A stretch of 64,000 bases of DNA from [Archangium] primigenium (GCF_016904885.1 NZ_JADWYI010000001.1:7241224-7305223), one strand, 5' to 3'. Positions 43,856 to 61,185 are shown, counted from the first letter of the stretch. Numbers and translations: made by a program. The notes: generated by a model from the sequence alone, not told the origin.

Positions 43856-43879
43856 GCGCCGCGCGCCGATACTCCCCGC

Positions 43880-44542
43880 ATGTCGCTGCCCTGTGAGAAG
43901 TGCGCCGCGCCCCTGCCGGACCCCACCCCGGGCTTCTCCCTGGTCACCTGCCGCGCGTGTGGCACCGCGCAGATGTTCAAGGCCCGGGCCCAGGCCGGGG
44001 GCGCGGCCCCGTCCAAGACGCCCCACACCTCCTCGGCCTTCGTCGTGCGCGAGGAGAAGGGAGCCCTGTGCATCGGCTGGAGCCACTTCTCGCTCACCCC
44101 GCTCCTGGTGCCGCTCGGGTTCCTGGCGTTCCTGCCGCTGATCGCCATCCGCTCGCCCGAGACCGCGAAGCTCCTGGTCCAGCCCCCGCTCGTGTTCATC
44201 GTGGGCGGAGTGCTAGCGCTCATCACCTACGTGGCGCTCGCCCACGCCCTCAACACCACGTGGGTGGAGATCCGGGGCCAGGAGCTGTCGCTCGTCACCA
44301 AGCCCCTGCCCCTGCCGCGCTCGGTGGCCGTGGACACGCGCACCGTGCGCAGCCTGTCCAGCCGGACCTACGAGCAGCAGGTCGCGCGGCACTTCCGCGA
44401 GACCCGCCACGCCGTCTGCCTCAAGACCCAGGAGGGTCGGCTGCTGAGCCTCGCGGACAACCTGGCCACCGAGTTCGACGCCGAGTGGCTTGGCCTGCGC
44501 ATCAGCGAGCACCTGGGCGTGCCCTTCGACGGCCGCCGCTGA
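43880..44542 (+). CDS. Hypothetical membrane protein with an N-terminal zinc-ribbon (CEKC...CRAC)
   Basis: It starts 25 nt after the rtcR stop. Two TM segments are present and composition is natural. Confidence 0.55.
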   Translation: MSLPCEKCAAPLPDPTPGFSLVTCRACGTAQMFKARAQAGGAAPSKTPHTSSAFVVREEKGALCIGWSHFSLTPLLVPLGFLAFLPLIAIRSPETAKLLVQPPLVFIVGGVLALITYVALAHALNTTWVEIRGQELSLVTKPLPLPRSVAVDTRTVRSLSSRTYEQQVARHFRETRHAVCLKTQEGRLLSLADNLATEFDAEWLGLRISEHLGVPFDGRR

Positions 44543-44552
44543 GCGCCGGGGC

Positions 44553-45719
44553 TCAACCCACCCCGCGCCGGGCGTCCAGCTCCTGGTTGAAGCGCACCAG
44601 CGCCTGGATGATCTCCTCCTGGGAGTCGGTGAGCAGCAGGTGCCGCGCGTACTCGTGGCCCTGGGCCAGGTGCGCGAGCAGCGGGTAGACGGGGCGCGTC
44701 GTCGTCCAGAAGTCGCGGCCCAGGAAGATCATCGGGCTGATGACACCCACGGTGTTGTAGTGGTTCTGGCACGCGTCCTGGAAGACCTCCTGCACGGTGC
44801 CCGCGCTGCCCGGGGAGTAGACGACGCCCCCCTTGGCGATGGTGAGCAGGCCCTCCTCGCGCACGCTGTTGGCGAAGTACTTGGCGATGCGCGTGGCGAA
44901 GGGGTTGGGCGGCTCGTGGCCATAGAGCCAGGTGGGAATGCCCAGGCTGTCGCTCAGCTCGCGGTGTTCGTCGAGCAGCGGCCAGGTGGCGCGCACCTCG
45001 AAGGCCCGCGCCAGCCACTCGGGGTGCTTGTAGCCCGGCGCGAGGGCCAGCACCTCGAGCGCCGCGTCCAGCTCCGCGTCGCTCCGCCCGGCGAACCACA
45101 CGCCCACGTGCGTGGCCTCCATGGCCCCGGGGCCGCCGCCGCTCACCAGGAAGAAGCCCAGGCGCGCCAGGGCCCGCGCCAGCTCCGCCACCGCGCGGTA
45201 GTCCGGCTGGCCGCGCAGCATGGAGTGGCCGCCCATGATGGCCACCACCCGGCGCGGCTGGCCCTGGTGGACGAGCACCTCCTCCAGCGCGTCCGTGATG
45301 GCGTGGTCATGGAGCCGCTGCGCCAGGGTCTCCAGGATGGAGGGCGGGTTGGCCCCCCCACGCGAGTTCCAGTGCGCGTAGACGCGCGCGTCCGGCGTGT
45401 CCGCGTAGCTCTCCGGGTGGGCGGGATCGAACCCCGCGTACAGCTCCTCCGGCGTGTAGAGCGCCCCCCGGTAGGGCGAGTACGGCAGGCCCGAGAACGG
45501 CGGGAACACCATGGCGCCCCGCTCGATGACGGTCTGCAACGTGCGCGGGTCCAGGTGGCAGCCGAGGAAGACGCTACCCGTGAGGTCCGAGCGCAGCAGC
45601 GCCTCGCCCTGCTCCTGGAGCTCCAGGCCCTGGAGGATGACGTTGGCGAGGCTCTTGCCTGCCGACAGGTGCTGCGCCAGGGCCGTCAGGCTCTCGATCT
45701 CCGTCACGTGAACTCCCAC
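44553..45719 (-). CDS. LOG family protein (TIGR00730 Rossmann-fold nucleotide-binding) with an N-terminal extension
   Basis: GGGPGAMEA and PGGSGT-like motifs are present (SGGGPGAMEATHVG...SPGSAGTVQE). Confidence 0.8.
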   Translation of the reverse strand: MGVHVTEIESLTALAQHLSAGKSLANVILQGLELQEQGEALLRSDLTGSVFLGCHLDPRTLQTVIERGAMVFPPFSGLPYSPYRGALYTPEELYAGFDPAHPESYADTPDARVYAHWNSRGGANPPSILETLAQRLHDHAITDALEEVLVHQGQPRRVVAIMGGHSMLRGQPDYRAVAELARALARLGFFLVSGGGPGAMEATHVGVWFAGRSDAELDAALEVLALAPGYKHPEWLARAFEVRATWPLLDEHRELSDSLGIPTWLYGHEPPNPFATRIAKYFANSVREEGLLTIAKGGVVYSPGSAGTVQEVFQDACQNHYNTVGVISPMIFLGRDFWTTTRPVYPLLAHLAQGHEYARHLLLTDSQEEIIQALVRFNQELDARRGVG

Positions 45720-45814
45720 CCAGAAGAGGCCCCGAGGCTAACAGGGCCCGAGGAGGAGCGGATTGCCCTCCCGACGAGCGCCGTGGTACCTCCGCGTCAC
45801 AGCCCGGGCGGAAA

Positions 45815-45833
45815 GATTCACGCGTCGTGAATC
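45815..45833 (+). promoter_or_regulatory. Perfect 8-bp inverted repeat GATTCACG-cgt-CGTGAATC, 32 nt upstream of the first giant gene's start codon. It is a candidate operator or regulator-binding site
   Basis: The palindrome is visible in the sequence. The surrounding ~45 nt (GCGGAAAGWT...CCGCG.GA.GG) are conserved upstream of the second paralog at 51921-51965, where the palindrome is degenerate (TCCAC-acatc-GTGGA at 51929-51943). Confidence 0.35.
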
Positions 45834-45864
45834 CGCGCGACGGGTGGCCCAAAGGGGGGAAGCG

Positions 45865-48800
45865 ATGCGGTGGCTGCGTTACGGGGTGGTGCTGCTGGCG
45901 GTGGTGGCGTGCACGGGGCGTGAGTCAACGCCCGCCGCGTCCCCCCCTCCGTCCGAGCCTCCGACGACCGGGTCCTCCCGCGCCGGGTTGGCGGGAGTGA
46001 GCGCCCGGCTCTTGAAGGACATCAACGAGACCACCTACGCGGCGAACCCGCAGGGGCTGGCGAACGTCAACGGCACGGTCTTCTTCAGGGCCACGGACGG
46101 CTTGAGCGGGGTCGAACTGTGGAAGAGCGACGGCACCGCCGCCGGCACCGTCCTCGTCAAGGACATCCATCCAGGTCCGGGCGACTCGACTCCGGAAGAA
46201 CTGACGAACGTCAACGGCACCCTCTTCTTCCGCGCCACGGACAACAGCACGGCGCGCCCGGTGCTGTGGAAGAGCGACGGCACCGCCGCCGGCACCGTCC
46301 CCGTCATGAACATGGTGGCGGGCCCGCAGACCTCGAGCCCCTACCTCCTGACGGCTGTCGGCGACACGCTCTATTTCACTTTCTATAACAGCGCGACGGG
46401 CACGGAGCTGTGGAAGAGTGACGGCACCGCCAAAGGCACCGTCCTCGTCAAGGACATCTCCCCGGGCTCGGCCAGCGCGAGGCCCGAGTACCTGACGAAC
46501 GTCAATGGCACGCTCTTCTTCGTGGCCGAGGGCAGCTTCTTCAATGACCGGGAGCTGTGGAAGAGCGACGGCACCGCCGCCGGCACCGTCCTCGTCAAGG
46601 ACATCCGCGAGGGCTCGGCCAGCTCGGCTCCCAGTCGACTGACGAACGTCAATGGCACGCTCTTCTTCGTGGCCAATCTCGGCGGTCGTAACAATCAGTT
46701 GTGGAAGAGCGATGGCACCACCGCCGGCACGGTCCTCGTCAAGGAACCGAATTCCTTGTTTCCCAGCAACCTGACGAACGTCAACGGCACGCTCTATTTC
46801 TCGGCCTCCGCAGGATACGCTCGCCAGGACTTGTGGAAGAGCGACGGCACCACCGTCGGCACCGTTCTCGTCAAGACCATCGATACGGTCTGGCCTGGCG
46901 TGGACCTCGCGAATCTGACGAACGTCAACGGCACACTCTACTTCACCACGGACGGCGAGAACGGCGATGAGCTGTGGAAGAGCGACGGCACCGCCGCCGG
47001 CACCGTCCTCTTCAAGGACATCCATCCAGGCTGGCCCTCCTCCCGCCCACGGGAGTTGAGGAGCATCAACAACACGCTCTATTTCACAGCCCAGAGCCCC
47101 TCCGAGTGGGGGTTGTGGAAGAGCGACGGAACCCCCACCGGCACCGTCCTCGTCAAGGCGCTCCAGCGCCAGTCGAGCCCGAGCGACACCGAACTCGTGG
47201 CCCTGACGGACGTCAACGGCACGCCTTACTTCAGCGCCAATGACGGTCTGTATGGCCATGAGTTGTGGAAGAGCGACGGCACGGCCACTGGCACGGTGCT
47301 GACCCGGGACATCAACACGAAGACGCAGGGTTCGAATCCCTACCTCCTGACGAACGTCAACGGCACGCTCTACTTCTCGGCCACGGATGGTGTGAATGGC
47401 TCCGAGTTGTGGAAGAGCGACGGCACCGCCGCTGGCACCCGCCTCGTCAAGGACATCAACCCCAGCTCGGGCGGCAATTCGAATCTCCACGCCTTGACGA
47501 ACGTCAACGGCACACTCTACTTCGCGGCCACGGATGGTGTGAATGGCTCCGAGTTGTGGAAGAGCGACGGCACCGCCGCTGGCACCCGCCTCGTCAAGGA
47601 TATCAACCCTGGCTCGAGCAACGCGTTTCCCGGCAAACTAACGAACGTCAACGGTACGCTGTATTTCACGGCCTCCAACAGCGAGAGCAGCTACCAAGAC
47701 AGATTGTGGAAGAGCGATGGCACCACCGCCGGCACTGTGCTTGTCCAGGGCACGGCCACCGGCTCGGGGGTCTTGTCGATCACGGGCTCCCTGACGAACG
47801 TCAACGGCACGCTCTACCTCTCGGCCACCAACGGCACGAGTGGCGAGGAATTGTGGAAGAGCGATGGCACCGCCGCTGGCACCGTCCTCGTCAAGGACCT
47901 CTTCCCTGGCTCGAGCGGCTCGGGTCCTGGAAATCTGACGAACGTCAACGGCACGCTCTACTTCTCGGCCACCAACGGCACGAGTGGCATGGAGTTGTGG
48001 AAGAGCGATGGCACCGCCGCCGGCACCGTCCTCGTCCAGGACCTCTTCCCCGGCTCGAGCGGCTCGGGTCCTGGAAATCTGACGAACGTCAACGGCACGC
48101 TCTACTTCTCGGCCACCAACGGCACGAGTGGCGTGGAGTTGTGGAAGAGCGATGGCACGGCCGAAGGCACCGTCCTCGTCCAGGACCTCTTCCCCGGCTC
48201 GAGCGGCTCGAATCCCCAAAACCTGACGAACGTCAACGGCACGCTCTACTTCTCGGCCACCAACGGCACGAGTGGTGTGGAGTTGTGGAAGAGCGATGGC
48301 ACGGCCGAAGGCACCGTCCTCGTCAAGGACCTCTTCCCCGGCTCGAGCGGCTCGAATCCTCGAGACATGGCGAACGTCAACGGCACGCTCTACTTCTCGG
48401 CCGACGACGGCACGACCGGCCGGGAGTTGTGGCGGAGCGATGGTACGACCGGGGGCACCGTCCTCGTCCAGGACATCTCCCCGGGCTCGATCGGCTCGGG
48501 GCCCCAGTACCTCACCCAGGCCGGGGCCTCGGTGTTCTTCACCGCCCGTACGCCGGCCCATGACACAGAGCTGTGGGTGCTGAGCGGCGACCTGCTGCCG
48601 CCCACCGTGACGTGCCCCGCCGCGCAGGACGCGCTGGCCACGAGCCCGGCCGGCGCGAATGTCACCTACCCGCCCGCCACCGCCACGGATGATCAGACGG
48701 ACTCGCCCCGGCTCGCCTACTCGCTGGCCTCCGGCGCCCTCTTCCCGTTGGGCGACACACGCGTCACCGTGACGGCCACGGACGACGCGGGCAACACGGC

Positions 48801-51800
48801 CCAGTGCGCCTTCACCGTCAGCGTCCTGCCGCCCCCGCCCACGGTCACCGCGCCTGTCGACGGGACGTCTTCGCTTCCACCTGTCCTCGTGTCCGGCACG
48901 GCCCTGGCGGGCGCCGAGGTGCACGTCCTGGAGGGCACCACCGTCCTGAAAATCCTCGCCACGAGCACGGACGGTACTTTCAGTGGCGGGATGGCGCCGG
49001 AGTCACGTGTCTACTCCCTGCGCTTCGTCCAGATCCTCAACGGCTTCACCTCCACGCCCACGGGCCCGCGCACCGTGTTCGTCCGCCCGCCGCCGCCGAG
49101 CCTCTCCCATCCCTCGGACGGACTCGTCACGACCCACCCCGACGTCCCCCTGCTCGTCCGCGGTCTGCCCGATGCCAGCCTCACCGTGCGCGAGGGCCCA
49201 ACGGTCCTCGCGACGCTTGCGCTCGACGAGGCGGGAAACTTCGCCGGTTCGCTCGCCCTGGACCCTGGCGTGCACGTGCTGCGCTTCACCCAGACCACGT
49301 CCGGTGGCACCAGTGACGAGGTCGTGCGCACCGTCACCCGCCAGCCGCCGGCCCCTGTCCTGACCCGCCCCACCTCGGGCGCTTCGCTCGTGGGCTCCAC
49401 CGTGCGCGTGGAGGGCACGGGCGCTCCGGGTGCCACGGCCCGGGTGCTCGAGGACGGCGCTGTCGTGGGCAGCTTCTCCGTGACGAGTGGCGGCACCTTC
49501 GCGGGTGACATCCCCCTGGCCTATGGCCCGCACCAGTTGACGGCGGTGCAGGTGGCTGGGGGCCAGACGAGCCCCGCCTCCGCGCCCGTCTCCTTCGAGG
49601 TGCGACCCGCTGCCCCCAGTGTGTCCTCGCCCGCCGATGGCACCACCTTCGACGGTCCCACGGTGGCCGTCTCGGGCTCGGGCGTGTTGGGCGCCCAGGT
49701 GGAGGTGCGGGAGGCGGGCACGGTGCTCGCCTCCTTCGCGGTGGACGCCTCCGGCGGCTTCACGGGCGAGGTGGAGTTGGCGCCCGGCACGCACAGCCTC
49801 TCCTTCGTGCAGAAGGCGGGTGGCACCACCAGTGACGTCACGGGCCCCCGGAATATCTCCGTGCGGCCCGCCGCCCCCGTGCTCTCCGCTCCCGCGGCCA
49901 ACGCCCGCGTGCCAGGGCCCCAGGTGGTGCTGCAGGGCACCGCCCTGGCCGGAGCGCGTGTCCTCGCCGAGGAGGCCGGCGTGTCCCTGGGCGGCACCTC
50001 GGCGGAGGCCTCCGGGGCCTTCCAGCTGAGCGTCACGCTGGCCTACGGGCCGCACAGCCTCTCGCTCCAGCAGGAAGCCGGCGGTGTCACCGGTCCGGCG
50101 CGCACCGCCGCCTTCACCGTCATTCCCGCCCCACCCGTCCTCTCCCAGCCCCAGGAGGGCGCCACCGTGGGCAGCAGCGTCGAGGTGCGCGGCACCGCCC
50201 TGCCCTTGGCGCACGTCACCCTGCGCGATGGCACCCAGGTGCTCGCCCAGCTCGACGCGGACGCCGACGGCGCCTTCCTGCTCGACGTCACCCTCGCCTA
50301 TGGCCCCCACACCCTCACCGCCGTGCAGCGTGTGCAGGGCGAGGACAGTGAGGCCTCCGCGCCCGCGCACCTCACCTCCGTCTTCAACCGCGCTCCCGTG
50401 GCCGACGCCCAGGAGTTGTCAGTCGAGGAAGACGGGCGCCTGGCCGTGACGCTCACCGCCAGCGACGCCGACGACGACGCCCTCACCTTCAGCGTCCAGA
50501 CGCCTCCGGCCCACGGCACCCTGGAGGGCACCCCGCCTGCCCTCACCTACGTGCCCGCGCCCGACTTCCACGGCGCCGACCGCTTCACCTTCGCCGTCTC
50601 CGACGGCCAGGCGGAGGCCACCGCCACCGTTCGCCTCACCGTCACCCCCGTCAATGACGCCCCCGTGGCCTACGCCCTTTCGGCCACCACGGGCGAGGGC
50701 CAGCCCGTCTCCCTCACCCTGTCCGGCAGCGACATCGATGGCGACGCGCTCTCCTATGCGGTGGTGACGGGCCCGGCGCACGGAAGCCTTCAGGGCACCC
50801 CGCCCGCGCTGACGTACACCCCCGCCCCGGGCTTCGCGGGCATGGACGCCTTCACCTTCCGCGTGAACGACGGTCAGCTCGACTCCCCTCCGGCCTCTGT
50901 ATCCATTCGCATCCTGGCCACCACCCTGTCCGTGTCCGTGAGCGACCTGTCTCCGCTGGAGGGCAGCCCCGTCGCCTTCTCGGCGGCTCTGGCCGATGCC
51001 CGCGCCACACCCTCCTTCGCCTGGGACTTCGGGGACGGCACCACGTCCCGCGAGCCCGCTCCGCGCCATGCCTTCCCCGACGACGGCCCGTACACCGTGC
51101 GCGTGAGCGCCACGGACGCCGACGGCACGCGCCAGGCGTCCGTCCTCCTCACCGTGCGCAACGCTCCGCCCGTGGTGACAGCCCTCACGCTGCCCGAGGG
51201 CGTCGTCGAAGCGCAGGAGGTGGAGTTGTCGGCCATGGCCGAGGACCCCGCTGGCAGCGCCGACACCCTGACGTACGCCTGGGACTTCGGCGATGGCTCG
51301 CCCGTGGTCCAGGGCACCACCGTGCGCCATGCCTTCCGGGACGACGGGACCTTCACCGTGGTGCTCACCGTGCGTGACGAGGACGGCGGTGAAACCCAGC
51401 AACAGGCCACGCTCTTCGTCGCCAACGTGCCTCCGACCGCCACCCCTCCCGAGCGCCAGTTCGTCCGCGTGGGAGAGAGCCTGAGCCTCCAGCTGGCCGC
51501 GAGCGATGTCGCGGGCGAGGCAGACCCGCTCACCTGGACGAAGCTCAGCGGGCCCGGCGCGGTGACGCCCGAAGGGCTCTTCACCTGGGTGCCCTCAACG
51601 CAGGAAGTGGGCGAGGCCTCCATTGAGCTCCAGGTGTCCGATGACGACGGGGGCAGCGCCGAGGTGACGCTGGTGGTGGAGGTGTCAGGCCCGAACGCCG
51701 AGCCGCCCGCGGGTTGTGGCTGTGGGGCCAGTGGTGAAGCCTCGGGGCTGTTCGCCGTCCTGCTCGGACTCGGTGCCCTCACCAGGCGCCGTGCGCCCCG

Positions 51801-51828
51801 TCCGGGCGCGACGCCTCGACACGGCTGA
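45865..51828 (+). CDS. Giant secreted/surface protein (1987 aa). From N- to C-terminus: signal peptide, about 26 ELWxxDGT repeats, a HYR domain, a tandem Ig-like domain array, two cadherin-like/VCBS domains, PKD domains, and a MYXO-CTERM sorting tail
   Basis: MRWLRYGVVLLAVVACTG is the signal peptide. ELWKSDGTAAGTVLVKDI..PG....P..LTNVNGTLYFSA.DG..G repeats are present. The tail is C-terminal GCGCGASGEASGLFAVLLGLGALTRRRAPR. Confidence 0.85.
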   Translation: MRWLRYGVVLLAVVACTGRESTPAASPPPSEPPTTGSSRAGLAGVSARLLKDINETTYAANPQGLANVNGTVFFRATDGLSGVELWKSDGTAAGTVLVKDIHPGPGDSTPEELTNVNGTLFFRATDNSTARPVLWKSDGTAAGTVPVMNMVAGPQTSSPYLLTAVGDTLYFTFYNSATGTELWKSDGTAKGTVLVKDISPGSASARPEYLTNVNGTLFFVAEGSFFNDRELWKSDGTAAGTVLVKDIREGSASSAPSRLTNVNGTLFFVANLGGRNNQLWKSDGTTAGTVLVKEPNSLFPSNLTNVNGTLYFSASAGYARQDLWKSDGTTVGTVLVKTIDTVWPGVDLANLTNVNGTLYFTTDGENGDELWKSDGTAAGTVLFKDIHPGWPSSRPRELRSINNTLYFTAQSPSEWGLWKSDGTPTGTVLVKALQRQSSPSDTELVALTDVNGTPYFSANDGLYGHELWKSDGTATGTVLTRDINTKTQGSNPYLLTNVNGTLYFSATDGVNGSELWKSDGTAAGTRLVKDINPSSGGNSNLHALTNVNGTLYFAATDGVNGSELWKSDGTAAGTRLVKDINPGSSNAFPGKLTNVNGTLYFTASNSESSYQDRLWKSDGTTAGTVLVQGTATGSGVLSITGSLTNVNGTLYLSATNGTSGEELWKSDGTAAGTVLVKDLFPGSSGSGPGNLTNVNGTLYFSATNGTSGMELWKSDGTAAGTVLVQDLFPGSSGSGPGNLTNVNGTLYFSATNGTSGVELWKSDGTAEGTVLVQDLFPGSSGSNPQNLTNVNGTLYFSATNGTSGVELWKSDGTAEGTVLVKDLFPGSSGSNPRDMANVNGTLYFSADDGTTGRELWRSDGTTGGTVLVQDISPGSIGSGPQYLTQAGASVFFTARTPAHDTELWVLSGDLLPPTVTCPAAQDALATSPAGANVTYPPATATDDQTDSPRLAYSLASGALFPLGDTRVTVTATDDAGNTAQCAFTVSVLPPPPTVTAPVDGTSSLPPVLVSGTALAGAEVHVLEGTTVLKILATSTDGTFSGGMAPESRVYSLRFVQILNGFTSTPTGPRTVFVRPPPPSLSHPSDGLVTTHPDVPLLVRGLPDASLTVREGPTVLATLALDEAGNFAGSLALDPGVHVLRFTQTTSGGTSDEVVRTVTRQPPAPVLTRPTSGASLVGSTVRVEGTGAPGATARVLEDGAVVGSFSVTSGGTFAGDIPLAYGPHQLTAVQVAGGQTSPASAPVSFEVRPAAPSVSSPADGTTFDGPTVAVSGSGVLGAQVEVREAGTVLASFAVDASGGFTGEVELAPGTHSLSFVQKAGGTTSDVTGPRNISVRPAAPVLSAPAANARVPGPQVVLQGTALAGARVLAEEAGVSLGGTSAEASGAFQLSVTLAYGPHSLSLQQEAGGVTGPARTAAFTVIPAPPVLSQPQEGATVGSSVEVRGTALPLAHVTLRDGTQVLAQLDADADGAFLLDVTLAYGPHTLTAVQRVQGEDSEASAPAHLTSVFNRAPVADAQELSVEEDGRLAVTLTASDADDDALTFSVQTPPAHGTLEGTPPALTYVPAPDFHGADRFTFAVSDGQAEATATVRLTVTPVNDAPVAYALSATTGEGQPVSLTLSGSDIDGDALSYAVVTGPAHGSLQGTPPALTYTPAPGFAGMDAFTFRVNDGQLDSPPASVSIRILATTLSVSVSDLSPLEGSPVAFSAALADARATPSFAWDFGDGTTSREPAPRHAFPDDGPYTVRVSATDADGTRQASVLLTVRNAPPVVTALTLPEGVVEAQEVELSAMAEDPAGSADTLTYAWDFGDGSPVVQGTTVRHAFRDDGTFTVVLTVRDEDGGETQQQATLFVANVPPTATPPERQFVRVGESLSLQLAASDVAGEADPLTWTKLSGPGAVTPEGLFTWVPSTQEVGEASIELQVSDDDGGSAEVTLVVEVSGPNAEPPAGCGCGASGEASGLFAVLLGLGALTRRRAPRPGATPRHG
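46045..48590 (+). repeat. Intragenic tandem array of about 120-nt (38-44 aa) ELWxxDGT repeat units, about 26 copies
   Basis: The peptide motif ..ELWKSDGT.AGTVLVKDI.PG is reiterated. Units are diverged at the nucleotide level but periodic. Confidence 0.7.
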
Positions 51829-51973
51829 CAGGCCCCGCGCCCTCGTCGCGTCCCGGGCGGGAGCAGGCGGTTTGCGCTCCCGACGGGCCGCATGGTACCC
51901 CCCCCTCGACACAACCGAAGCGGAAAGTTCCACACATCGTGGACTTCCGCGAGCGGTATCCCGAGGGGGGACC

Positions 51974-54900
51974 ATGCGGTGGCTGCGTTATGCGGTGGTG
52001 GTGTTGGCGGTGGTGGCGTGCTCGCGGCCCGAGCCCGTGCCCCCCGTCGAGACCATGCCTTCCGTGTCTCGGGAAGTGGCCGGGTCGTCCCGCGCGGGAC
52101 TGGTGAGCGCGAGCGCCCGGCTGGTGAAGGACATCAACCCGCGCACCGCCTCGGCGAATCCGCGGGAGCTGACCAACATCCAGGGCACCGTCTATTTCAG
52201 CGCCTCGGACGGCATGACGGGCAGCGAACTGTGGAAGAGCGATGGCACCGCCGCCGGCACCGTCCTCCTCAAGGACATCCATCCGGGCCCGGGCGACTCG
52301 GCCCCCAGGAACCTGATCAACGTCAACGGCACGCTCTACTTCTCGGCCACCAACGGCATCCATGGCCATGAGCTGTGGAAGAGCGATGGCACCGCCGCCG
52401 GCACCGTCCTCGTCCAGGACATCTTCCCCGGCGCGGATGGCTCGGATCCCAACCAACTGACGGACGTCAACGGCACCCTCTTCTTCTCGGCCACCAACGG
52501 CACCCATGGCTATGAGGTGTGGAAGAGTGACGGCACCGCCGCTGGCACCGTCCTCCTCAAGGACATCTTCCCAGGCCAGGTGCACTCGAGTCCGAGCTCC
52601 CTGACGAATGTCAACGGCACCCTCTTCTTCTCGGCCCTTGACGACGTGAATGGCCAGGGGTTGTGGAAGAGCGATGGCACGGCCGCGGGCACCGTCCTCG
52701 TCAAGGACATCAACCCAAGCGCGAACTATTCGAACTCGCATTCCCTGACGAACGTCAACGGCATGCTCTACTTCTCGGCCGAGGACGGCGTGCATGGCAT
52801 GGAGTTGTGGAAGAGCGACGGCACCGCCGCCGGCACCGTCCTCGTCCAGGACATCTTTCCAGGCTCATTCAACGGGAACCCGAGGGGCCTGACGAACGTC
52901 CAGGGCACGCTCTACTTCAGCGCCTCGGACGACTCGACGAACAGGGAGCTGTGGAAGAGCGACGGCACCGCCGCGGGCACCGTCCGCGTCAAGGACATCC
53001 GCCCAGGAGGGGCCGGCGCGAGCCCGGAGTTCCTGACGCACGTCAACGGCATGCTCTACTTCTCGGCCGAGGACGGCGTGAATGGCCGGGAGTTGTGGAA
53101 GAGCGATGGCACCACCGCCGGCACCGTGCTCGTCCAGGACATCGTCATGGGCTCGGGCTCGTCCACACCCGAGGAGTTGAAGAACGTCAACGGCACGCTC
53201 TATTTCACGATCCGGACCGCCTCCAGGTGGGAGTTGTGGAAGAGCGACGGCACCGCCGCCGGCACGATCCTCTTCAAGGCGCTCTCGCCCATCGGCTCCG
53301 GACCGCTGTACCTGACGGACGTCAACGGCACGGCCTGGTTCAGCATCAATGTCGACGGGAAGGGCACCGAGCTGTGGAAGAGCGACGGAACGCCCTCGGG
53401 TCTGGTGATGATCCGGGACATCAACACGAATACGGAAGACGCGCTCCCGAGCCGACTGACGAACGTCAATGGCATGCTTTACTTCGCGGCCCGCGATGAC
53501 AGTGGTCGCGCGGAACTGTGGAAGAGCGACGGTACGACCGCGGGGACCGTCGTGCATTACCTCGACCCGGGCGCGCCCAGCCCGAACCCGCTCGAGCTGA
53601 CGAACGTCAACGGCACCCTCTTCTTCTCCGCCTCGGAAGGCACGAATGGCCGGGAGTTGTGGAAGAGCGATGGCACGGCCGCGGGCACCCGGCTCGTCAA
53701 GGACATCTTCCCGGGCGTGAACAGCTCGAACCCGAGCAACCTGACGAACGTCAACGGCACCCTCTTCTTCGTCGCATCGAACGGCACGAATGGCCAGGAG
53801 CTCTGGAAGAGCGATGGCACGGCCGCGGGCACCGTGCTCGTCAAGGACATCCTCCCAGGCTCGGGCCCCTCGAGCCCGAGCAACCTGACGAACGCCAACG
53901 GCACCCTCTTCTTCTCGGCCAACGATGGCCAGCGTGGCACCGAGCTGTGGAAGAGCGATGGCACCACCGCCGGCACGGTCCTCGTCAAGGACCTCCTCCC
54001 GGGCGCGAACGACGGGTCTCCGCAGCTGCTGACAAACATCAACGGCACGCTCTTCTTCGTCGCCACGGACGACACGAATGGCCAGGAGTTGTGGAAGAGC
54101 GATGGCACGGCCGCGGGCACCGTGCTCGTCAAGGACATCTTCCCGGGCACGCGCGGCTCATTCCCGAACGGCCTGACGAACCTCGATGGCACGCTCTATC
54201 TCAGCGCCACGGACGGCACGAATGGCCAGGAGCTGTGGAAGAGCGATGGCACCGCCGCGGGTACCGTGCTCGTCCAGGACATCGTCCCGGGCGCTTTGGG
54301 CTCGAACCCGAGCCGCCTGACGAACGCCCAGGGCACGCTCTACTTCTCGGCCTGGAGCGAGGCGAATGGACAGGAGCTGTGGAAGAGCGATGGCACGGCC
54401 GCGGGCGCCCTGCTCGTCAAGGACATCTTCCCGGGCACGCGCGGCTCGGCACCGACCTCCCTGATGAATAGCGGAAGCACGCTCTACTTCTCGGCCGACG
54501 ACGGCACGACGGGCCGGGAGTTGTGGATGAGCGATGGCACGGCCGCGGGCACCGTGCTCGTCCAGGACATCTTCCCGGGTCCGACTGGCTCGGAGCCCCT
54601 GTACCTCACCCAGGCGAGAGGCGCGGTGTTCTTCTCCGCGGCCTCGTTGGCGCACGGCCGGGAGTTGTGGGCGGTGGGCGGTGACAGCGTCCCGCCCACG
54701 GTGACGTGTCCCGCTCAGCAAGACGCGCTGGCCACGAGCGCCGCCGGGGCGACTGTCACCTACCCGCCCGCCACCGCCACGGATGACCAGACCGCCTCGC
54801 CCCGGCTCACCTACTCGGTGGCCTCCGGCGCCCTCTTCCCGCTGGGCGACACGCGCGTCACCGTGACGGCCACGGATGACGCGGGCAATACGGCCCAGTG

Positions 54901-57900
54901 TGGCTTCACCGTGAGCGTCCTACCGCCCCCGCCCACGGTCACCGCGCCTGTCGACGGGACGTCCTCGCTCGCGCCCGTGCTCATCTCCGGCACGGCCCTG
55001 GCGGGCGCCGAGGTGCACGTCCTGGAGGGAACCACCGTCCTGCGAAGCCTCGCCACGAACACGGACGGTGCCTTCAGTGGTGGGCTGGCGCTGGAGTCGC
55101 GTGTCTACTCGCTGCGCTTCGTCCAGACCCTCAACGGCTTCACCTCCACGCCCACGGGTCCGCGCACCGTGTTCGTCCGCCCGCCACCGCCGAGCCTCTC
55201 CCATCCCGAGGACGGACTCGTCACGACGAACCCCAGCGTCCCCCTGCTCGTCCGCGGTCTGCCCGACGCCACCCTCACCGTGCGCGAGGGCACGGCGGTC
55301 CTCGCGACGCTTGCTATCGACGAGGTGGGAAACTTCGCTGGGTCGCTCGCCCTGGGCCATGGCGTGCACGTGTTGCGCTTCACCCAGACCACGTCCGGTG
55401 GCACCAGTGACGACGTCGTGCGCACCGTCACCCGTCGGCCGTCGGCCCCTGTCTTGACCCGCCCCACCTCGGGCACTTCGCTCGTGGGCCCCACCGTGCG
55501 AGTGGAGGGCACGGGCGCTCCGGGTGCCACCGCCCAGGTGCTCGAGGCCGGCGCCGTCGTGGGCACCTTCCCCGTGGCGAGTGGCGGCACCTTCGTGGGT
55601 GACCTCGCCCTGGCCTATGGCCCGCACCAGTTGACGGCGGTGCAGGTGGAGGGCGGCCAGACGAGTCCCGCCTCCGCACCCGTCTCCTTCGAGGTGCGGC
55701 CCGCCGCCCCCCAGGTGTCCTCACCCACCGAAGGCGCCACCTTCGACGGCCCCACGGTGGCCGTCACCGGCACGGGCGCGCCGGGGGCTCAGGTGCAGGT
55801 GCGGGAGGCCAGGATGGTGCTCGCCTCCTTCGCGGTGGGCGCTTCCGGGGATTTCTCGGGCGAGGTGGAGCTGGAGCCTGGTACGCACAGCCTCTCCTTC
55901 GTGCAGAAGGCGGGTGGCGCCACCAGTGACGCCACGGGCCCGCGCAACGTGTCCGTGCGACCCGCCGCCCCCGTGCTCTCCTCGCCCGCCGCCAACGCCC
56001 GCGTGCTGGGACCCCAGGTGTTGCTGCAAGGCACGGCCCTCGCCGGAGCGCGAGTCTTCGCGGAGCAGGCGGGCGTGGCCCTGGGCAGCACCTCGGCGGA
56101 TGCGGCCCGGACGTTCCGACTGAGCGTCACCCTCGCCTACGGGCCGCACAGCATCGCCCTGCGGCAGGAGAGGGGGGGCGCTACCAGCCTGGCGCGCACC
56201 GCCGCCTTCACCGTCATCCCCGCCCCGCCCGTCCTCTCCCAGCCCCTGGATGGCGCCACCGTGGGCAACACCGTCGAGGTGCGCGGCACCGCCCTGCCCC
56301 GGGCGCGCGTCACCTTGCGCGATGGCGCCGAGGTTCTCGCCCAGCTCGACGCTGACACCAGCGGCACCTTCCTCCTGGACGTCTCGCTCTCCTACGGGCC
56401 TCACACCCTCACCGCCGTGCAGCGCGTACAGGGCGAGGACAGCGACCCCTCCGCGCCCGTGCACCTCACCACTGTTTTCAACCGCGCTCCCGTGGCGGAT
56501 GCCCAGGAATTGTCCGTCGAAGAAGACGGGCGCCTGGCCGTGACGCTCACCGCCCAGGATGCCGATGACGACGCCCTCACCTTCTCCGTCGGGACGCCGC
56601 CCGCCCACGGCTCGCTGGAGGGCACGCCGCCCGCCCTCACCTACGTCCCCGCCCCCGACTTCCACGGCGCCGACCGCTTCACCTTCGCCGTCTCGGACGG
56701 CCAGGCCGAGGCCACCGCCACCGTGCGCCTCACCGTCACTCCCGTCAACGATGCCCCCGTGGCGCACGCCCTCAGCGCCACCACGGGCGAAGGCCAGTCC
56801 ATCTCCCTCACCCTGTCCGGCTCCGATATCGATGGCGACACGCTCACCTACGTGGTCGTGACGGCTCCGGAGCATGGCGGCCTCCAAGGCACGCCGCCCG
56901 CGCTGACGTACACCCCCGCCCCGGGCTTCGCGGGCACGGACTTCTTCACCTTCCGGGTGAAGGACGGGCAGCTCGACTCGCCTCCGGCCACCGTGTCCCT
57001 GCGCGTCCTGGCCACCGCACTCACCGTCTCCGTGAGTGACCTGTCTCCCCTGGAGGGCAGTCCCGTCGCCTTCTCGGCCACGCTCGCCGATGCCAGCGCC
57101 ACGCCTGTCTTCTCCTGGGACTTCGGCGATGGCACTACGTCCACCGAGCCCGCCCCGCGACATGCCTTCCCCGACAACGGCGTGTACACCGTGCGCGTGA
57201 GTGCCACGGACGCCGACGGCACGCGCCAGGCGTCCGTGGTCCTCACCGTGCGCAACGCCCCTCCCGTGGTGACGTCTCTTTTCCTGTATGAGCGCGTCCT
57301 CGAGGCCCAGGAGGTCAAGCTGTCCGCCCTCGCGGAGGATCCCGCGGGCGACGCCGACACCCTGACCTACACCTGGGACTTCGGCGATGGCTCCCCCCCG
57401 GCGCTTGGCTCCACCGTGCGCCATGCCTTCCGGGACGACGGCGCCTTCACCGTGGTGCTCACCGTGCGTGACGAAGACGGCGGCGAGACCTGGAAGCAAG
57501 CCACCCTGACGGTCACCAACGTGCCTCCGACCACCACGGCTCCCGAGCGCCAGTTCATCCAGGTGGGCGAAAGCCTGAGCCTGCAACTGGCCGCCAGCGA
57601 CGTCGCGGGCGAGGCGGATCCGCTCACCTGGACCAAGCTCAGCGGTCCGGGCGCGGTGACCCCCGAGGGCCTCTTCACCTGGGTGCCCACCGCGCAGGAA
57701 GTGGGCGAGGCCTCCATCGAACTCCAGGTGTCCGACGACGAGGGCGGCAGCGCCGAGGTGACGCTCGTGGTGGAAGTGTCACGCCTGGAGACAGAGCCGC
57801 CCGCGGGCTGTGGCTGTGGCACTAGCGGGGACGCCTCGGGGCTGCTCGCGTTGCTCGGACTGGGTCTCCTGTCCGGGCGCCGTGCGCCCCGTTCACGAGG

Positions 57901-57928
57901 CCGTGGCTTGACGTCGCGGGAGGATTGA
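51974..57928 (+). CDS. Giant secreted/surface protein (1984 aa). It is a tandem paralog of the upstream gene with the same ELWxxDGT-HYR-Ig-cadherin-like-PKD-MYXO-CTERM architecture
   Basis: MRWLRYAVVVLAVVACS is the signal peptide. The C-terminal two thirds are about 90% identical to the upstream paralog at the protein level. The tail is CGCGTSGDASGLLALLGLGLLSGRRAPR. Confidence 0.85.
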   Translation: MRWLRYAVVVLAVVACSRPEPVPPVETMPSVSREVAGSSRAGLVSASARLVKDINPRTASANPRELTNIQGTVYFSASDGMTGSELWKSDGTAAGTVLLKDIHPGPGDSAPRNLINVNGTLYFSATNGIHGHELWKSDGTAAGTVLVQDIFPGADGSDPNQLTDVNGTLFFSATNGTHGYEVWKSDGTAAGTVLLKDIFPGQVHSSPSSLTNVNGTLFFSALDDVNGQGLWKSDGTAAGTVLVKDINPSANYSNSHSLTNVNGMLYFSAEDGVHGMELWKSDGTAAGTVLVQDIFPGSFNGNPRGLTNVQGTLYFSASDDSTNRELWKSDGTAAGTVRVKDIRPGGAGASPEFLTHVNGMLYFSAEDGVNGRELWKSDGTTAGTVLVQDIVMGSGSSTPEELKNVNGTLYFTIRTASRWELWKSDGTAAGTILFKALSPIGSGPLYLTDVNGTAWFSINVDGKGTELWKSDGTPSGLVMIRDINTNTEDALPSRLTNVNGMLYFAARDDSGRAELWKSDGTTAGTVVHYLDPGAPSPNPLELTNVNGTLFFSASEGTNGRELWKSDGTAAGTRLVKDIFPGVNSSNPSNLTNVNGTLFFVASNGTNGQELWKSDGTAAGTVLVKDILPGSGPSSPSNLTNANGTLFFSANDGQRGTELWKSDGTTAGTVLVKDLLPGANDGSPQLLTNINGTLFFVATDDTNGQELWKSDGTAAGTVLVKDIFPGTRGSFPNGLTNLDGTLYLSATDGTNGQELWKSDGTAAGTVLVQDIVPGALGSNPSRLTNAQGTLYFSAWSEANGQELWKSDGTAAGALLVKDIFPGTRGSAPTSLMNSGSTLYFSADDGTTGRELWMSDGTAAGTVLVQDIFPGPTGSEPLYLTQARGAVFFSAASLAHGRELWAVGGDSVPPTVTCPAQQDALATSAAGATVTYPPATATDDQTASPRLTYSVASGALFPLGDTRVTVTATDDAGNTAQCGFTVSVLPPPPTVTAPVDGTSSLAPVLISGTALAGAEVHVLEGTTVLRSLATNTDGAFSGGLALESRVYSLRFVQTLNGFTSTPTGPRTVFVRPPPPSLSHPEDGLVTTNPSVPLLVRGLPDATLTVREGTAVLATLAIDEVGNFAGSLALGHGVHVLRFTQTTSGGTSDDVVRTVTRRPSAPVLTRPTSGTSLVGPTVRVEGTGAPGATAQVLEAGAVVGTFPVASGGTFVGDLALAYGPHQLTAVQVEGGQTSPASAPVSFEVRPAAPQVSSPTEGATFDGPTVAVTGTGAPGAQVQVREARMVLASFAVGASGDFSGEVELEPGTHSLSFVQKAGGATSDATGPRNVSVRPAAPVLSSPAANARVLGPQVLLQGTALAGARVFAEQAGVALGSTSADAARTFRLSVTLAYGPHSIALRQERGGATSLARTAAFTVIPAPPVLSQPLDGATVGNTVEVRGTALPRARVTLRDGAEVLAQLDADTSGTFLLDVSLSYGPHTLTAVQRVQGEDSDPSAPVHLTTVFNRAPVADAQELSVEEDGRLAVTLTAQDADDDALTFSVGTPPAHGSLEGTPPALTYVPAPDFHGADRFTFAVSDGQAEATATVRLTVTPVNDAPVAHALSATTGEGQSISLTLSGSDIDGDTLTYVVVTAPEHGGLQGTPPALTYTPAPGFAGTDFFTFRVKDGQLDSPPATVSLRVLATALTVSVSDLSPLEGSPVAFSATLADASATPVFSWDFGDGTTSTEPAPRHAFPDNGVYTVRVSATDADGTRQASVVLTVRNAPPVVTSLFLYERVLEAQEVKLSALAEDPAGDADTLTYTWDFGDGSPPALGSTVRHAFRDDGAFTVVLTVRDEDGGETWKQATLTVTNVPPTTTAPERQFIQVGESLSLQLAASDVAGEADPLTWTKLSGPGAVTPEGLFTWVPTAQEVGEASIELQVSDDEGGSAEVTLVVEVSRLETEPPAGCGCGTSGDASGLLALLGLGLLSGRRAPRSRGRGLTSRED
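52150..54690 (+). repeat. Intragenic tandem array of about 120-nt ELWxxDGT repeat units, about 28 copies, in the second paralog
   Basis: The same periodic motif is present as in the first paralog. Confidence 0.7.
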
Positions 57929-57943
57929 ACTGAAAGGCCCGCC

Positions 57944-58681
57944 ATGACGACCTCCCCTTCGCTTCCCCGGCTCGTGCTGTGCGAGCTTGCAGACTCCGGC
58001 ATCCCGGGCCTGGAGAGCGTCTCGCCGTTCTGCCTGAAGGCGCACCGCGCGCTGAAGTACCTGGGCCTGCCTTACGAGCGGCGCCACGGCATGCCCGGCA
58101 GCTTCAAGAAGCACTTCTCGACCGGCCAGGTGCCCGTGCTCCTCGTGGGCGAGCACGAGGCGGTGGGCGACTCCACGGACATCCTCGCGCGGCTCGAATC
58201 GCTCGCGGGGCGTCCCTTCCTCGACCCCCCGGACGCGCGGCTCAAGGGAGAGGCGCTGGTGTGGGAGGAGTACGCCGACACGTCGCTCGCCGGCTTCCTC
58301 ATCGCCGCGCGCTGGGCCGACACGCACAACTGGCCGCTGCTGCGCGACAACATCCTCGCCAGCATCCCCCCGCCGCTGCGCGGCCTCATCGGGGGAAGGA
58401 TCCGCAAGAACGTGCTCGCCGCGCTCGTGGCGCGGGATGTCTGGCGCGCGGGCCCGGACGCCTGCTGGCGGCGCTTCCAACAGCAGCTCGACGCCCTGGA
58501 GGCCCGCGCCCCCGAGGAGGGCTTCTGGCTTGGCGCCTTCTCGGTCGCGGACCTGGGCCTGTTCGCCCAGCTCCACAGCCTCCGCCAACCGCTCACCCCC
58601 TGGCAGCGCGATCAGGTCTCCGCGCGCTCCCGGCTTTCCCGGTACGTGGACCGGGTAGACGCGGCCACGCGAGGGGCGTGA
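57944..58681 (+). CDS. Glutathione S-transferase family protein
   Basis: A thioredoxin-like N-terminal domain (SPFCLKAHRALKYLGLPYE...QVPVLLVGEHEAVGDSTDILARL) is followed by a helical C-terminal domain. Confidence 0.75.
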   Translation: MTTSPSLPRLVLCELADSGIPGLESVSPFCLKAHRALKYLGLPYERRHGMPGSFKKHFSTGQVPVLLVGEHEAVGDSTDILARLESLAGRPFLDPPDARLKGEALVWEEYADTSLAGFLIAARWADTHNWPLLRDNILASIPPPLRGLIGGRIRKNVLAALVARDVWRAGPDACWRRFQQQLDALEARAPEEGFWLGAFSVADLGLFAQLHSLRQPLTPWQRDQVSARSRLSRYVDRVDAATRGA

Positions 58682-58775
58682 ACAACGCACCGCACCACGC
58701 CCCCAGCGGCCGGAGGAGCGACCCCGGCGCACCGGGAACTGGACGGGCATGCCCGGGATATAGGATGTCCCCGGG

Positions 58776-60125
58776 ATGAGGACGCGCAGGCCCCTGGTCA
58801 TCGTCGACGCACTCGCCTCGCTGGCCAACGCCTTCAAGGCCATTTTTCCGGGCAGCACCACGACCTCGCTGTCGGCGGCGGAGCTCGCCATGCAGGTCGA
58901 GGCGATGGGCCCGCGCGCGGCCCTCAAGCCCAAGGTGGTGCCGCTGGACGAGACCCGGCTCGCGGCGCTGCTCTACTTCGATCAACCCACGCCCCAGGCC
59001 GGCCTGCTCATCGATCTGTGGCGCCCGGTGCGCACGAGCGACAGCCACTTCGCGCGCGCCTTCTGCCGCGTCTTCAACGACGACCTGAACCACGTCTCCG
59101 ACGCCCTGCACCTCAACGAGCACTGGGCCTCGCTCGAGCAGACGCGCCTGCGCCGCGCCGTGGCGCGCTTCCTCAACTACCGGCCGCGCCAGATGTCCAA
59201 CTGGATCCGCGCCGTGGAGGACTCCATGGCCCTCACCTACGAGGGCCGCGCCGTGCGCCACTGCCTCATCGTCGCGCGCAAGGCGCCCAAGCTCGTGCAG
59301 AAGCTGCAGAACAAGTTCATCCCCCTGCCCAGCGGCATCTCCATCGAGAACGCGCTCTTGCGCGAGAAGTGGATCCGCACCGTGGTGGACGGGCGCCGCG
59401 TGGCGCTGCTCGGCAGCATGCACTCCGGCAGCATCATCGGCTTCATCTCGCTCGCCGAGGTGGACCGCAACGACGCCGCGCTGCGCTATGCCCCCCACGA
59501 GACGCTGGTGCCCGTGCAGGCGGTGCTGGGCCACTCCGCGCATGACGTGGCGCTGGTGGCCTCGCCGCAGAACGATCTCTTCATCCTCAGTGGCAAGGGC
59601 TCGGTGTTCCAGAAGAGCCACGGCCACTGGCGGGTGCTGGACTACGAGGCGCTGCACGAGCGGCTGTCGGTGCGCTTTCGCGAGGACGTGGTCATCGGCG
59701 TGCTCCGGGCCGCCATCGATCTGTCCTTCGAGCGCACGGGCGCGCTCTTCTGCCTGCTCGACTCGCGCGAGGACTTGACGGACTTCATCCCGGACCATGG
59801 CCACGCGCTGGCGGCCAACTCGCACCTGCGGCGCAGCCTGCGGGGACAGAACATCTCCGTCTGGGCGCAGCGCCAGGTCATCACCGCCGCGGCGGCCACG
59901 GATGGCGCCGTGGTGCTCGACAAGGACGGCAGCGTGCTGGACATCGCGTGCATGATCTCCAGCCCCAAGGAGATCGCCCGGCTCGGGCTGCGCGAGCCCA
60001 GCATGCCCGGGGCCCGGGCGCTCGCGGCGTGGCGGGCGAGCTTCCGGGGCGTGGCCCTCAACGTCTCCGAGGACGGTCCCATCACCGTCTACGAGCGCGG
60101 GGCCACCATCGGCCGCATCGGGTAG
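58776..60125 (+). CDS. Hypothetical protein with a C-terminal DisA_N/DAC (diadenylate cyclase)-like domain in which the RHR motif is replaced (GARALAA)
   Basis: GALFCLLD...TDGAVVLDKDGSVLDIAC...GARALAAW..ALNVSEDGPITVY aligns to DAC blocks GALIVI / HDGAVII / GTRHRAA / VSEETG. The N-terminal ~250 aa are of unknown function. Confidence 0.6.
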   Translation: MRTRRPLVIVDALASLANAFKAIFPGSTTTSLSAAELAMQVEAMGPRAALKPKVVPLDETRLAALLYFDQPTPQAGLLIDLWRPVRTSDSHFARAFCRVFNDDLNHVSDALHLNEHWASLEQTRLRRAVARFLNYRPRQMSNWIRAVEDSMALTYEGRAVRHCLIVARKAPKLVQKLQNKFIPLPSGISIENALLREKWIRTVVDGRRVALLGSMHSGSIIGFISLAEVDRNDAALRYAPHETLVPVQAVLGHSAHDVALVASPQNDLFILSGKGSVFQKSHGHWRVLDYEALHERLSVRFREDVVIGVLRAAIDLSFERTGALFCLLDSREDLTDFIPDHGHALAANSHLRRSLRGQNISVWAQRQVITAAAATDGAVVLDKDGSVLDIACMISSPKEIARLGLREPSMPGARALAAWRASFRGVALNVSEDGPITVYERGATIGRIG

Positions 60126-60167
60126 CGCTCCGGGCGGGTCTATGCTGTCGCCCCCGCCTCCGGAGCC

Positions 60168-61049
60168 TTGTCCATGAAACGTCTGCTGTCGCTGGCCGTG
60201 TTGTGCCTCGCCCCGCTGTCCGCCTCCGCCAACAGCTCCACCGCGAGCTTCTCCAACGAGGGGCTCAAGCTGCTCAAGTCCGAGAAGATCCGCATGGCGC
60301 GCGAGGAGCTTTTCGTCTCGGCCGAGCGCATCCGGGTGCGCTACACCTTCGAGAACCTGACGCCCCAGCCCATCAAGACCCTGGTCGCCTTTCCCTTCCC
60401 CGACACGGACTTGATGGTGGACACGGACGTGTCCGAGGTCGGGGCGTTCACGCTCACCATCGGCGGCAAGCGCCAGGAGACGCGGCGCGAGACGACCTAC
60501 ACGGTCCAGGGAAAGAAGCGCGACAAGGCCCAGGCCGAGGCCCTCGTCCACGCGGAGCAGGCCCGGCGCGAGAGCGACGAGGACTCGCCCACGCCGGGCT
60601 TCACCGCCCGCGAGCAGCACGTGGAGCTCTGGGAGCAGGAGTTTCCTCCCGGCAAGGGGCTCGAGGTGGAGATCTCCTACACGCCGTCCGTGGGAGGCGA
60701 TCTCGGGTGGGACCGCGACACCTACAAGAACAAGCGGCTGCGCGAGAAGTTCTGCATCGATGCCACCACCGTGAAGGCGCTCGACAAGACGCTGGCGCGC
60801 AACGCGGCGGCCGATCCGGAAGGGCAGGCCTCCGGCGGGCGGCTCCAGTGGCTGTCCTACGTGCTGGTCACGGCCAACAACTGGGCGGGGCCCATCGGGG
60901 AGTTCCACCTGACGCTGGAGAAGTCCTCGCCCACCGACGTGCTCTCCACCTGCATCGACGGCCTGAAGAAGACGAGCCCCGTGCGCTTCGAGCTCACCCG
61001 GAAGGACTTCCGCCCCGATCGGGATCTCCAGATGATCCTCTTTCGGTAA
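60168..61049 (+). CDS. Secreted hypothetical protein (signal peptide MSMKRLLSLAVLCLAPLSASA)
   Basis: Composition is natural, with charged Lys/Glu/Arg-rich segments. Confidence 0.65.
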   Translation: MSMKRLLSLAVLCLAPLSASANSSTASFSNEGLKLLKSEKIRMAREELFVSAERIRVRYTFENLTPQPIKTLVAFPFPDTDLMVDTDVSEVGAFTLTIGGKRQETRRETTYTVQGKKRDKAQAEALVHAEQARRESDEDSPTPGFTAREQHVELWEQEFPPGKGLEVEISYTPSVGGDLGWDRDTYKNKRLREKFCIDATTVKALDKTLARNAAADPEGQASGGRLQWLSYVLVTANNWAGPIGEFHLTLEKSSPTDVLSTCIDGLKKTSPVRFELTRKDFRPDRDLQMILFR

Positions 61050-61185
61050 TGCGGGGAAAACGAGGCGCTGAAACCCACGCGTGCCTCGCGCCACGGCGCT
61101 CGCGCTGACGCAATCGATCGGAAGGCGGTCCGTAGAGGAGAGACCGCGCGGTCATGCGGATGCTCTCGCTCCAGGGGTCGCCTCC

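Follow-up and report, generated by a model that had tools for sequence, protein, structure and literature searches.

We analysed a 64,000-nucleotide (nt) stretch of the [Archangium] primigenium genome (GCF_016904885.1, NZ_JADWYI010000001.1:7241224-7305223; the whole stretch is called the window below), in which two long open reading frames (ORFs) on the plus strand, genes A and B, occupy positions 45763-57928. Our results make it probable that A and B belong to a tandem family of MYXO-CTERM surface proteins that varies in copy number, with stalks that undergo concerted evolution and heads that have diverged on one face. Gene A (45865..51828) encodes 1987 amino acids (aa) and gene B (51974..57928) encodes 1984 aa; an earlier reading of the DNA (the original prediction) had proposed adjacent plus-strand genes of exactly these sizes, and the translated ORFs match RefSeq proteins exactly (WP_204492665.1 for A and WP_204492667.1 for B). 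Translation probably begins at the ATG at 45865 in A and at 51974 in B, each opening a sequence that encodes MRWLRY, the stops lie at 51828 and 57928, and a 145-bp spacer separates the genes. RefSeq already names both products 'ELWxxDGT repeat protein', and the pattern described here is of an ordinary evolutionary kind in genes already annotated.

Colinear homology bore out the proposal that a giant gene for a MYXO-CTERM surface protein, together with its own 5' region, has been duplicated in tandem. A and B gave one blastn alignment (45758-51801 versus 51867-57892; 80.8% identity over 6076 columns), with all off-diagonal matches confined to the two internal repeat arrays; the homology runs over the whole length of the copies. 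The duplicated unit is about 6.1 kb long and starts 107 bp 5' of each ATG. As had been proposed, the N-terminal arrays are more diverged than the remainder: they share 62% aa and 70-80% nt identity, with a synonymous divergence (dS) of 0.43 and a ratio of non-synonymous to synonymous divergence (dN/dS) of 0.68, compared with 85% aa identity (80-93% per 100-aa window), 83-92% nt identity, a dS of 0.30 and a dN/dS of 0.31 from the HYR domain onward. The HYR peptide quoted in the original prediction is present in both proteins. Its estimate of about 90% protein identity from this domain onward has to be lowered to 85%, and its description of the copies as near-identical kilobase repeats does not hold, as no exact A-B match is longer than 44 nt and the overall nt divergence is 19%. 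Given this short match and a dS of about 0.3-0.45, the A-B duplication is old, neither recent nor near-identical.

To place the pair among its relatives, we searched about 5.8 billion proteins and found full-length coverage in five clusters from three genomes. In Melittangium boletus CP185340, three tandem copies (bol1, bol2 and bol3; 1984, 1983 and 1989 aa) occupy the same locus as the pair, with the left neighbours (rtcB, rtcR, a 220-aa gene and a SLOG-like gene) and the right neighbours (GST, a 449-aa gene and DUF4424) that are found in the window. Comparison of this locus (L081/L082) with window 38192-45860 and 57929-64000 showed flanks that are 97.2%, 96.6% and 94.8% identical, right to the array edges. 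Archangium gephyra DSM 2261 has one copy, at an unrelated locus. The comparison of copy number between related genomes that had been suggested thus gives two copies here, three in CP185340 and one in A. gephyra. Two environmental contigs carry single genes with the same type of stalk, and the ELWxxDGT and HYR genes of Pyxidicoccus and Hyalangium are singletons (two loci examined). Stalks composed of six Ig-like, two cadherin-like and two PKD domains were seen in only the three genomes and the two environmental fragments.

A six-way codon alignment (A, B, bol1-3 and the A. gephyra gene), analysed by segment trees with bootstrap support, revealed that different parts of the genes have different histories. 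Across the array segment, A groups with bol1 and B with bol2, each at 100% bootstrap; A and bol1 differ there by 0-14% nt divergence (dS 0.08), or about 5% for the A-type array overall. In columns 1001-1240 the tree becomes ((A,bol1),B) at 100%, in columns 1241-1320 it joins bol1 with bol3 (100%) and bol2 with A (84%), and downstream of column 1320 the nearest neighbours shift repeatedly. The stalks of bol1 and bol3 share an exact tract of 300 nt, and a maximum chi-square analysis showed the divergence between A and B to be significantly uneven along the stalk. It identified a low-divergence tract of about 630 nt (about 48913..49545 on the plus strand in A; about 55007-55639 in B), in the segment where B joins A and bol1, with a third-position divergence of 8.6% versus 24.6% outside (reached in 1/200 permutations). 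The conflict between segment trees at 100% bootstrap, together with two versus three copies, upholds the earlier suggestion of recombination between copies and indicates that the stalk halves are mosaics formed by gene conversion or unequal crossover. The propeller arrays, by contrast with the stalks, were not exchanged between paralogs.

Both proteins follow one domain order and end in a MYXO-CTERM tail, as originally described. The N terminus of A (45865..45912) reads as a signal peptide with a lipobox-like LAVVAC end (Cys16), and that of B (51974-52021) ends likewise; both match the lipobox pattern [LVI][ASTVI][GAS]C with V-V-A-C16, by pattern match only, which makes them putative lipoprotein-type (signal peptidase II) signal peptides. 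A Cys in the same context is present in nearly all of the 26 relatives listed. The signal peptide is followed by the ELWxxDGT array (46000..48588 in A and 52112..54682 in B), which has the motif ELWxSDGT. In each protein it comprises 17 full 48-aa units with a partial unit at either end, or about 18 blades, rather than the 26-28 repeats of about 40 aa first counted. Tandem Repeats Finder (TRF) gave a 144-bp period with 16.4 copies in A and 16.6 in B (52202-54579). A and B are members of the TIGR04534 ELWxxDGT repeat protein family, scoring 1011.9 bits over 17 stretches and 1165.6 bits over 18 stretches, respectively, against a cut-off of 65.

The arrays were also compared unit by unit. Units 13-16 of gene A (47851..48426) form a block of four 144-bp units with mutual nt identities of 88-97%, within a TRF sub-array at 47346-48498 (83% matches). 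This identity suggests that units were recently homogenised or duplicated within gene A, in a process separate from the exchange between paralogs. The block is also present in the bol1 orthologue, judged by 92% array identity, and gene B has no block like it, its best unit pair being 84% identical. Positional orthology between A and B is limited to the idiosyncratic units 1, 7, 8, 9 and 17, and the other units resemble any unit as much as their positional partner.

Downstream of the array, the stalk of A begins with a HYR domain (48589..48825, aa 909-987), which scores 50.0 bits on PF02494, compared with 44.4 bits for that of B and a cut-off of 21.7. It is followed by six Ig-like repeats of 86-87 aa (48829..50382, aa 989-1506), defined by internal alignment where four had been counted; the matching region of B hits Big_6 and Glucodextran_B. 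Two cadherin-like/Big_9 ('tandem-95') domains come next (50386..50907, aa 1508-1681; PF17892, PF17963 and NF012211, the last scoring 126.5 bits in A against a cut-off of 90). The pair of cadherin-like/VCBS domains originally proposed is therefore cadherin-like (Cadherin_5/Big_9/'tandem-95'), and its VCBS assignment falls away, as no VCBS family was among the Pfam matches of A or B at E <= 0.01. Two PKD domains (50926..51411, aa 1688-1849) score 97.3 bits on PF00801 and 116.5 bits on PF18911 in A, and 87.2 and 119.5 bits in B, with two stretches per model and scores above gathering thresholds; in A, a further Ig-like segment extends to about 51684. The stalk of B (54683..57514) has the same order, with HYR at aa 904-982, six Ig-like repeats at 984-1501, two cadherin-like domains at 1503-1676 and two PKD domains at 1683-1847.

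Searching the PDB by sequence with the array returned nothing significant (best E 0.19), and no paper in the literature library searched mentions this repeat family. An AlphaFold2 model of aa 41-925 of A, built from a 16-sequence alignment, was all-beta (pLDDT 79.8, pTM 0.55), and every Foldseek match to it at E <= 0.001 contains a beta-propeller, in line with the beta-propeller that had been guessed at. Past the ninth ELW motif, both proteins have a sequence (RDINTKTQ in A and RDINTNTE in B) that resembles the array start (KDINETTY in A and KDINPRTA in B). Combined with the model and the Foldseek matches, this resemblance leads us to read the 18 blades as two predicted nine-bladed beta-propellers, the first ending near 47298 in A. 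An array length of about 17 units is conserved among myxobacterial relatives, which fits a fixed fold and not a freely expanding repeat. Structures with this blade number among the matches, the propellers of eIF2A (8dys and 3wj9) and eIF3b (4nox), are 5-8% identical to the array and belong to cytosolic eukaryotic translation factors, so that the likeness is limited to fold and blade number.

Variation is not spread evenly over the predicted blades. A comparison of 96 repeat units, taken from six proteins, showed conservation of at least 60% at 31 of about 48 phases and high variability at ten (17, 21, 22, 24, 26, 27, 40, 43, 44 and 46). The four predicted strands of a blade correspond to 'P..LTNV', 'TLYFSA', 'ELWKS' and 'VLVK', and when phases are mapped on these predicted strands, the variable ones (17-27 and 40-46) fall in the loops 4->1' and 2->3. 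Consecutive antiparallel strands alternate in direction, which would put both of these loops on one propeller face, with the conserved 'NG' and 'DGTAAGT' loops probably on the opposite face. On this topology, A-B divergence would be concentrated in two same-face loops of every blade. The face formed by such loops is the usual binding face of a propeller. A and B are likely sister proteins displayed with a common stalk and with different binding specificities.

The gene unit also carries its own 5' region, to judge from its conservation across copies. The 110 nt before the ATG are retained in A, B, bol1, bol3 and the A. gephyra singleton at 67-93% identity, with the shared motifs TTGC(C/G)C-N18-TACC(T/C)C, GCGGAAA and a G-rich Shine-Dalgarno-like run. 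In A this region (45758..45864) reads TTGCCC-N18-TACCTC, GCGGAAA and, at a distance of 5 nt from the ATG, AAAGGGGGG; in B (51867..51973) it lies inside the 145-bp spacer and shares 86% identity with the sequence that precedes bol3. The A and B regions are 69% identical, with an alignment score of 36 versus -21 +/- 5 for shuffled sequences. Promoter and Shine-Dalgarno roles for these elements are plausible. The claim that the duplication includes the promoter thus stood for the 5' homology (about 107 bp), and the promoter itself comes down to conserved motifs. A scan for consensus sigma-70 promoters and terminators gave none upstream of or between A and B, no sigma-54 -24/-12 motif in the right order was seen by eye, and an Rfam search of 44000-59000 at gathering thresholds gave no match. 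RNAalifold predicted a hairpin in the 5' untranslated region, with compensatory changes in 2 of 32 pairs and many pairs broken. At the non-syntenic locus of A. gephyra, the 5' element (L083 9891-10003) is conserved as well, which suggests that gene and 5' region were moved, or kept, as a unit.

At the other end, both proteins carry a putative MYXO-CTERM sorting domain, at 51709..51792 in A (a GCGC motif, a hydrophobic helix and RRR) and, as read from the sequence, at 57803..57883 in B (GCGC, a hydrophobic stretch and RR). The motif with the invariant Cys is AGCGCGAS in A and AGCGCGTS in B, and the hydrophobic stretch and Arg cluster are GLFAVLLGLGAL-TRRRAPR in A and GLLALLGLGLL-SGRRAPRSRGR in B. 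This corresponds to the published tripartite definition with a generic GCGC motif and its invariant Cys (PMC11980579). On TIGR03382 (cut-off 15.85) the isolated tails score 16.2 bits (A) and 17.0 bits (B), and on TIGR03901 (cut-off 20) they score 23.0 and 19.9 bits; in a full-length scan, MYXO-CTERM appeared at E <= 0.01 in B (17.6 bits, below the cut-off) and not in A. Proteins of this type are sorted by the myxosortase MrtX, Cys lipidation and a type II secretion system (PMC11980579). By analogy with TraA (PMC11980579), A and B would be exported through Sec, lipidated on the GCGC cysteine and cleaved by myxosortase, and their delivery to the cell surface would depend on the type II secretion system. 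Once displayed, the row of Ig-type domains might act as a stalk that keeps the propellers, as a binding head, off the outer membrane. Nearly all of the myxobacterial ELWxxDGT/HYR proteins examined, which are A, B and 24 related proteins, pair a lipobox-like signal (…[AGV][AG]C) with a C-terminal MYXO-CTERM, a combination of which we found no mention in the myxosortase literature searched.

These observations can be combined into a history of the locus. An old tandem duplication copied the 6.1-kb unit in full, with its roughly 107 bp of 5' region. The stalk-coding halves have since exchanged segments among copies, remaining 80-93% identical and mosaic; the propeller arrays diverged to a floor set by the repeat consensus. 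The same recombination alters copy number, giving one copy in A. gephyra, two here and three in Melittangium. Compared with the original prediction, the duplication and the order of domains are retained, as are the interpretations of tandem duplication, recombination and a beta-propeller; the domain and repeat counts, near-identity, recency, the promoter and the risk of assembly collapse are not.

Several points weigh against this account. The arrays of B and bol2 differ by 11-24% nt (dS 0.27), far more than the flanks (about 3%), so the two are not simple orthologues and a picture of orthologous pairs is incomplete. The variable phases have a dN and a dS both of about 1 between paralogs (dN/dS about 1.1-1.4), a ratio that is no proof of positive selection because the phases were picked for variability and dS is saturated. 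The MYXO-CTERM of B falls 0.1 bit below the TIGR03901 cut-off and passes one of the two models. With an N-terminal lipobox in addition to the MYXO-CTERM lipid, the protein might be tethered at both ends, which would complicate the stalk-and-head picture. The array, moreover, was modelled in one piece (aa 41-925), and the second propeller is an inference.

On the two genomes compared, the excess divergence of the B-bol2 arrays fits either of two histories, an ancestral array of at least four copies with different deletions per lineage, or divergent alleles imported by recombination between strains. At the bol1-bol2 junction of CP185340 (L081 about 15900-16000), the spacer and the first bol2 codons have been deleted: the bol1 stop overlaps the bol2 start (ATGA), the signal peptide of bol2 opens differently (MTPRHGCAVMLFALMAC), and the conserved 5' element is missing from bol2. 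Over roughly its final 60 nt, B matches the tail of bol3. This tail, the bol3-like region upstream of B and the junction deletion fit a history of deletions. We also considered B as a bol2/bol3 chimera and ruled this out, as B differs by 11-24% nt from bol2 in the array and by 11-17% from bol3 near the 3' end, compared with about 3% in the flanks.

The import of divergent alleles is central to the most serious alternative, that the locus is polymorphic and serves to recognise kin, prey or matrix, with propeller faces under diversifying or balancing selection, comparable to the variable domain of TraA, and with divergent alleles exchanged between strains. We regard this as possible, with the odds clearly against it. 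It would account for the divergence gradient from B-type array (11-24% nt, dS 0.27) to A-type array (about 5%) to flanks (about 3%), for the concentration of paralog differences on one predicted propeller face, for a MYXO-CTERM display like that of TraA and for a gene content of two versus three copies. However, it is built on two clade genomes and one outgroup, differential loss from an ancestral array of at least four copies explains the data without selection, the estimate of dN/dS (omega) is circular and saturated, and the pair has no PA14-like domain and no TraB-like partner gene beside it. Its boldest form is similarly doubtful: a hypervariable, copy-number-varying recognition locus with ligand-binding propeller faces diversified under selection and swapped between strains, which would parallel TraA with an unrelated type of head, perhaps on a protein tethered at both ends.

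It is improbable that the propellers are catalytic, for example as the head of a stalked surface enzyme that degrades glycans or processes peptides. Propeller-containing enzymes do occur among the structural matches, but only at the level of the generic propeller fold (5-15% identity), and in the matched peptidases the propeller is a non-catalytic gate. No catalytic family was found at E <= 0.01 in Pfam or NCBIfam, the conserved ELW, DGT and NG residues look structural and recur in every blade, and the potential active face is the variable one. Least credible of all is a recent duplication that left near-identical kilobase repeats and an unstable locus prone to assembly collapse: stalk halves 83-92% nt identical and a copy number that differs between close genomes would suit it, but A and B share 80.8% nt identity with a dS of 0.30-0.43 and no exact match above 44 nt, both paralog types are present in a second genome, and collapse is unrealistic for the source strain ATCC 29037, whose PacBio Sequel reads were assembled by HGAP at 441x coverage, with a 9.47-Mb contig here (9,468,833 bp; PMC8307915).

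A copy-number-variable tandem family with concerted stalks and diverged heads can be compared with three groups of known proteins. TIGR04534 relatives in Pyxidicoccus, Corallococcus, Hyalangium and Stigmatella have the same 47-48-aa repeat, in about 17 units from near aa 85, and, like A and B, they start with a Cys-type signal, place a HYR domain straight after the array and end in a MYXO-CTERM tail. Outside the Melittangium/Archangium clade, however, the stalk is mostly repeated HYR, and these relatives share 7-16% of the C-terminal half. Like A and B, TraA of Myxococcus xanthus, a polymorphic cell-surface receptor, has a Sec signal and a MYXO-CTERM (PMC11980579, PMC3820747), combines a variable head at the N terminus with a repetitive stalk that is better conserved, and differs strongly in sequence between close strains, which here applies to one paralog. 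TraA differs in having a PA14-like head rather than a pair of predicted nine-bladed propellers and a Cys-rich repeat stalk rather than one of Ig, cadherin and PKD domains; A and B are about three times larger and have no traB-like neighbour. The homotypic recognition of TraA has no known counterpart in A and B. A and B do not classify as TraA-type receptors, with no PA14 domain at E <= 0.01 and with RtcR, the SLOG-like gene and GST as neighbours; of the features that define this type of receptor, they share the MYXO-CTERM only.

The third group comprises tandem surface-protein families, which resemble A and B in their head-to-tail paralogs, their mosaic conserved regions, their diverged binding regions and their differences in copy number between close strains. 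Bacterial arrays of adhesin or Ig-like repeat paralogs evolve by gene conversion and unequal crossover. Unlike in that class, exchange in A and B is restricted to the membrane-proximal stalk, and the 2.6-kb internal array, though repetitive, shows no exchange between paralogs.

Several features of the window and of the related loci were also noted. G+C content is 0.635-0.657 in both arrays (46000-48000 and 52000-54000) versus about 0.70-0.72 around them; the dip sits in codon positions 1 and 2 (0.51-0.56), and third positions keep a G+C of 0.88-0.91, which points to amino-acid composition and not foreign origin. Directly upstream of the pair, at 38415-45719, lies an RNA-repair cluster of rtcA (-), rtcB (-), a 357-aa gene without a Pfam match, rtcR (+; a sigma-54 activator), a 220-aa gene without a Pfam match and a divergent SLOG-like gene; this order is kept in CP185340. 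Farther away, the minus strand encodes a bacterial protein of 820 aa that is homologous to the eukaryotic Major Vault Protein (30864-33326; MVP_shoulder 2.4e-44, with Vault, Vault_2, Vault_3 and Vault_4 repeats in Pfam) and a 1125-aa fusion of a Ser/Thr protein kinase with an nSTAND1 NTPase (151-3528; PF20703, 6.6e-86). Genes with DUF6310 and DUF5953 occur near the ELWxxDGT gene in both A. gephyra (L083 16011-17696 and 24239-25730) and Hyalangium gracile (L087 16334-17997), two loci that are otherwise unrelated; they are absent beside the pair in the window.

The CP185340 genome itself (GCA_051105915.1, labelled Melittangium boletus) is 95-97% identical to [Archangium] primigenium at this locus. 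Average nucleotide identity (ANI) between A. primigenium and M. boletus DSM 14713T is <95%, and ATCC 29037 has been assigned to the genus Melittangium (PMC8307915). Flank identity of 95-97% in combination with such an ANI suggests that the CP185340 strain may be conspecific with ATCC 29037 and not with the M. boletus type.

Collectively, the pair offers a first structural hypothesis, two nine-bladed propellers, for the unstudied ELWxxDGT repeat. It also provides a worked example of how a myxobacterium may maintain a small repertoire of giant surface proteins, with a stalk kept uniform by recombination and heads diverging on one face. If the B-type array proves hypervariable between near-identical strains in further genomes as well, it would make this locus a candidate determinant of recognition or adhesion during social or predatory behaviour.

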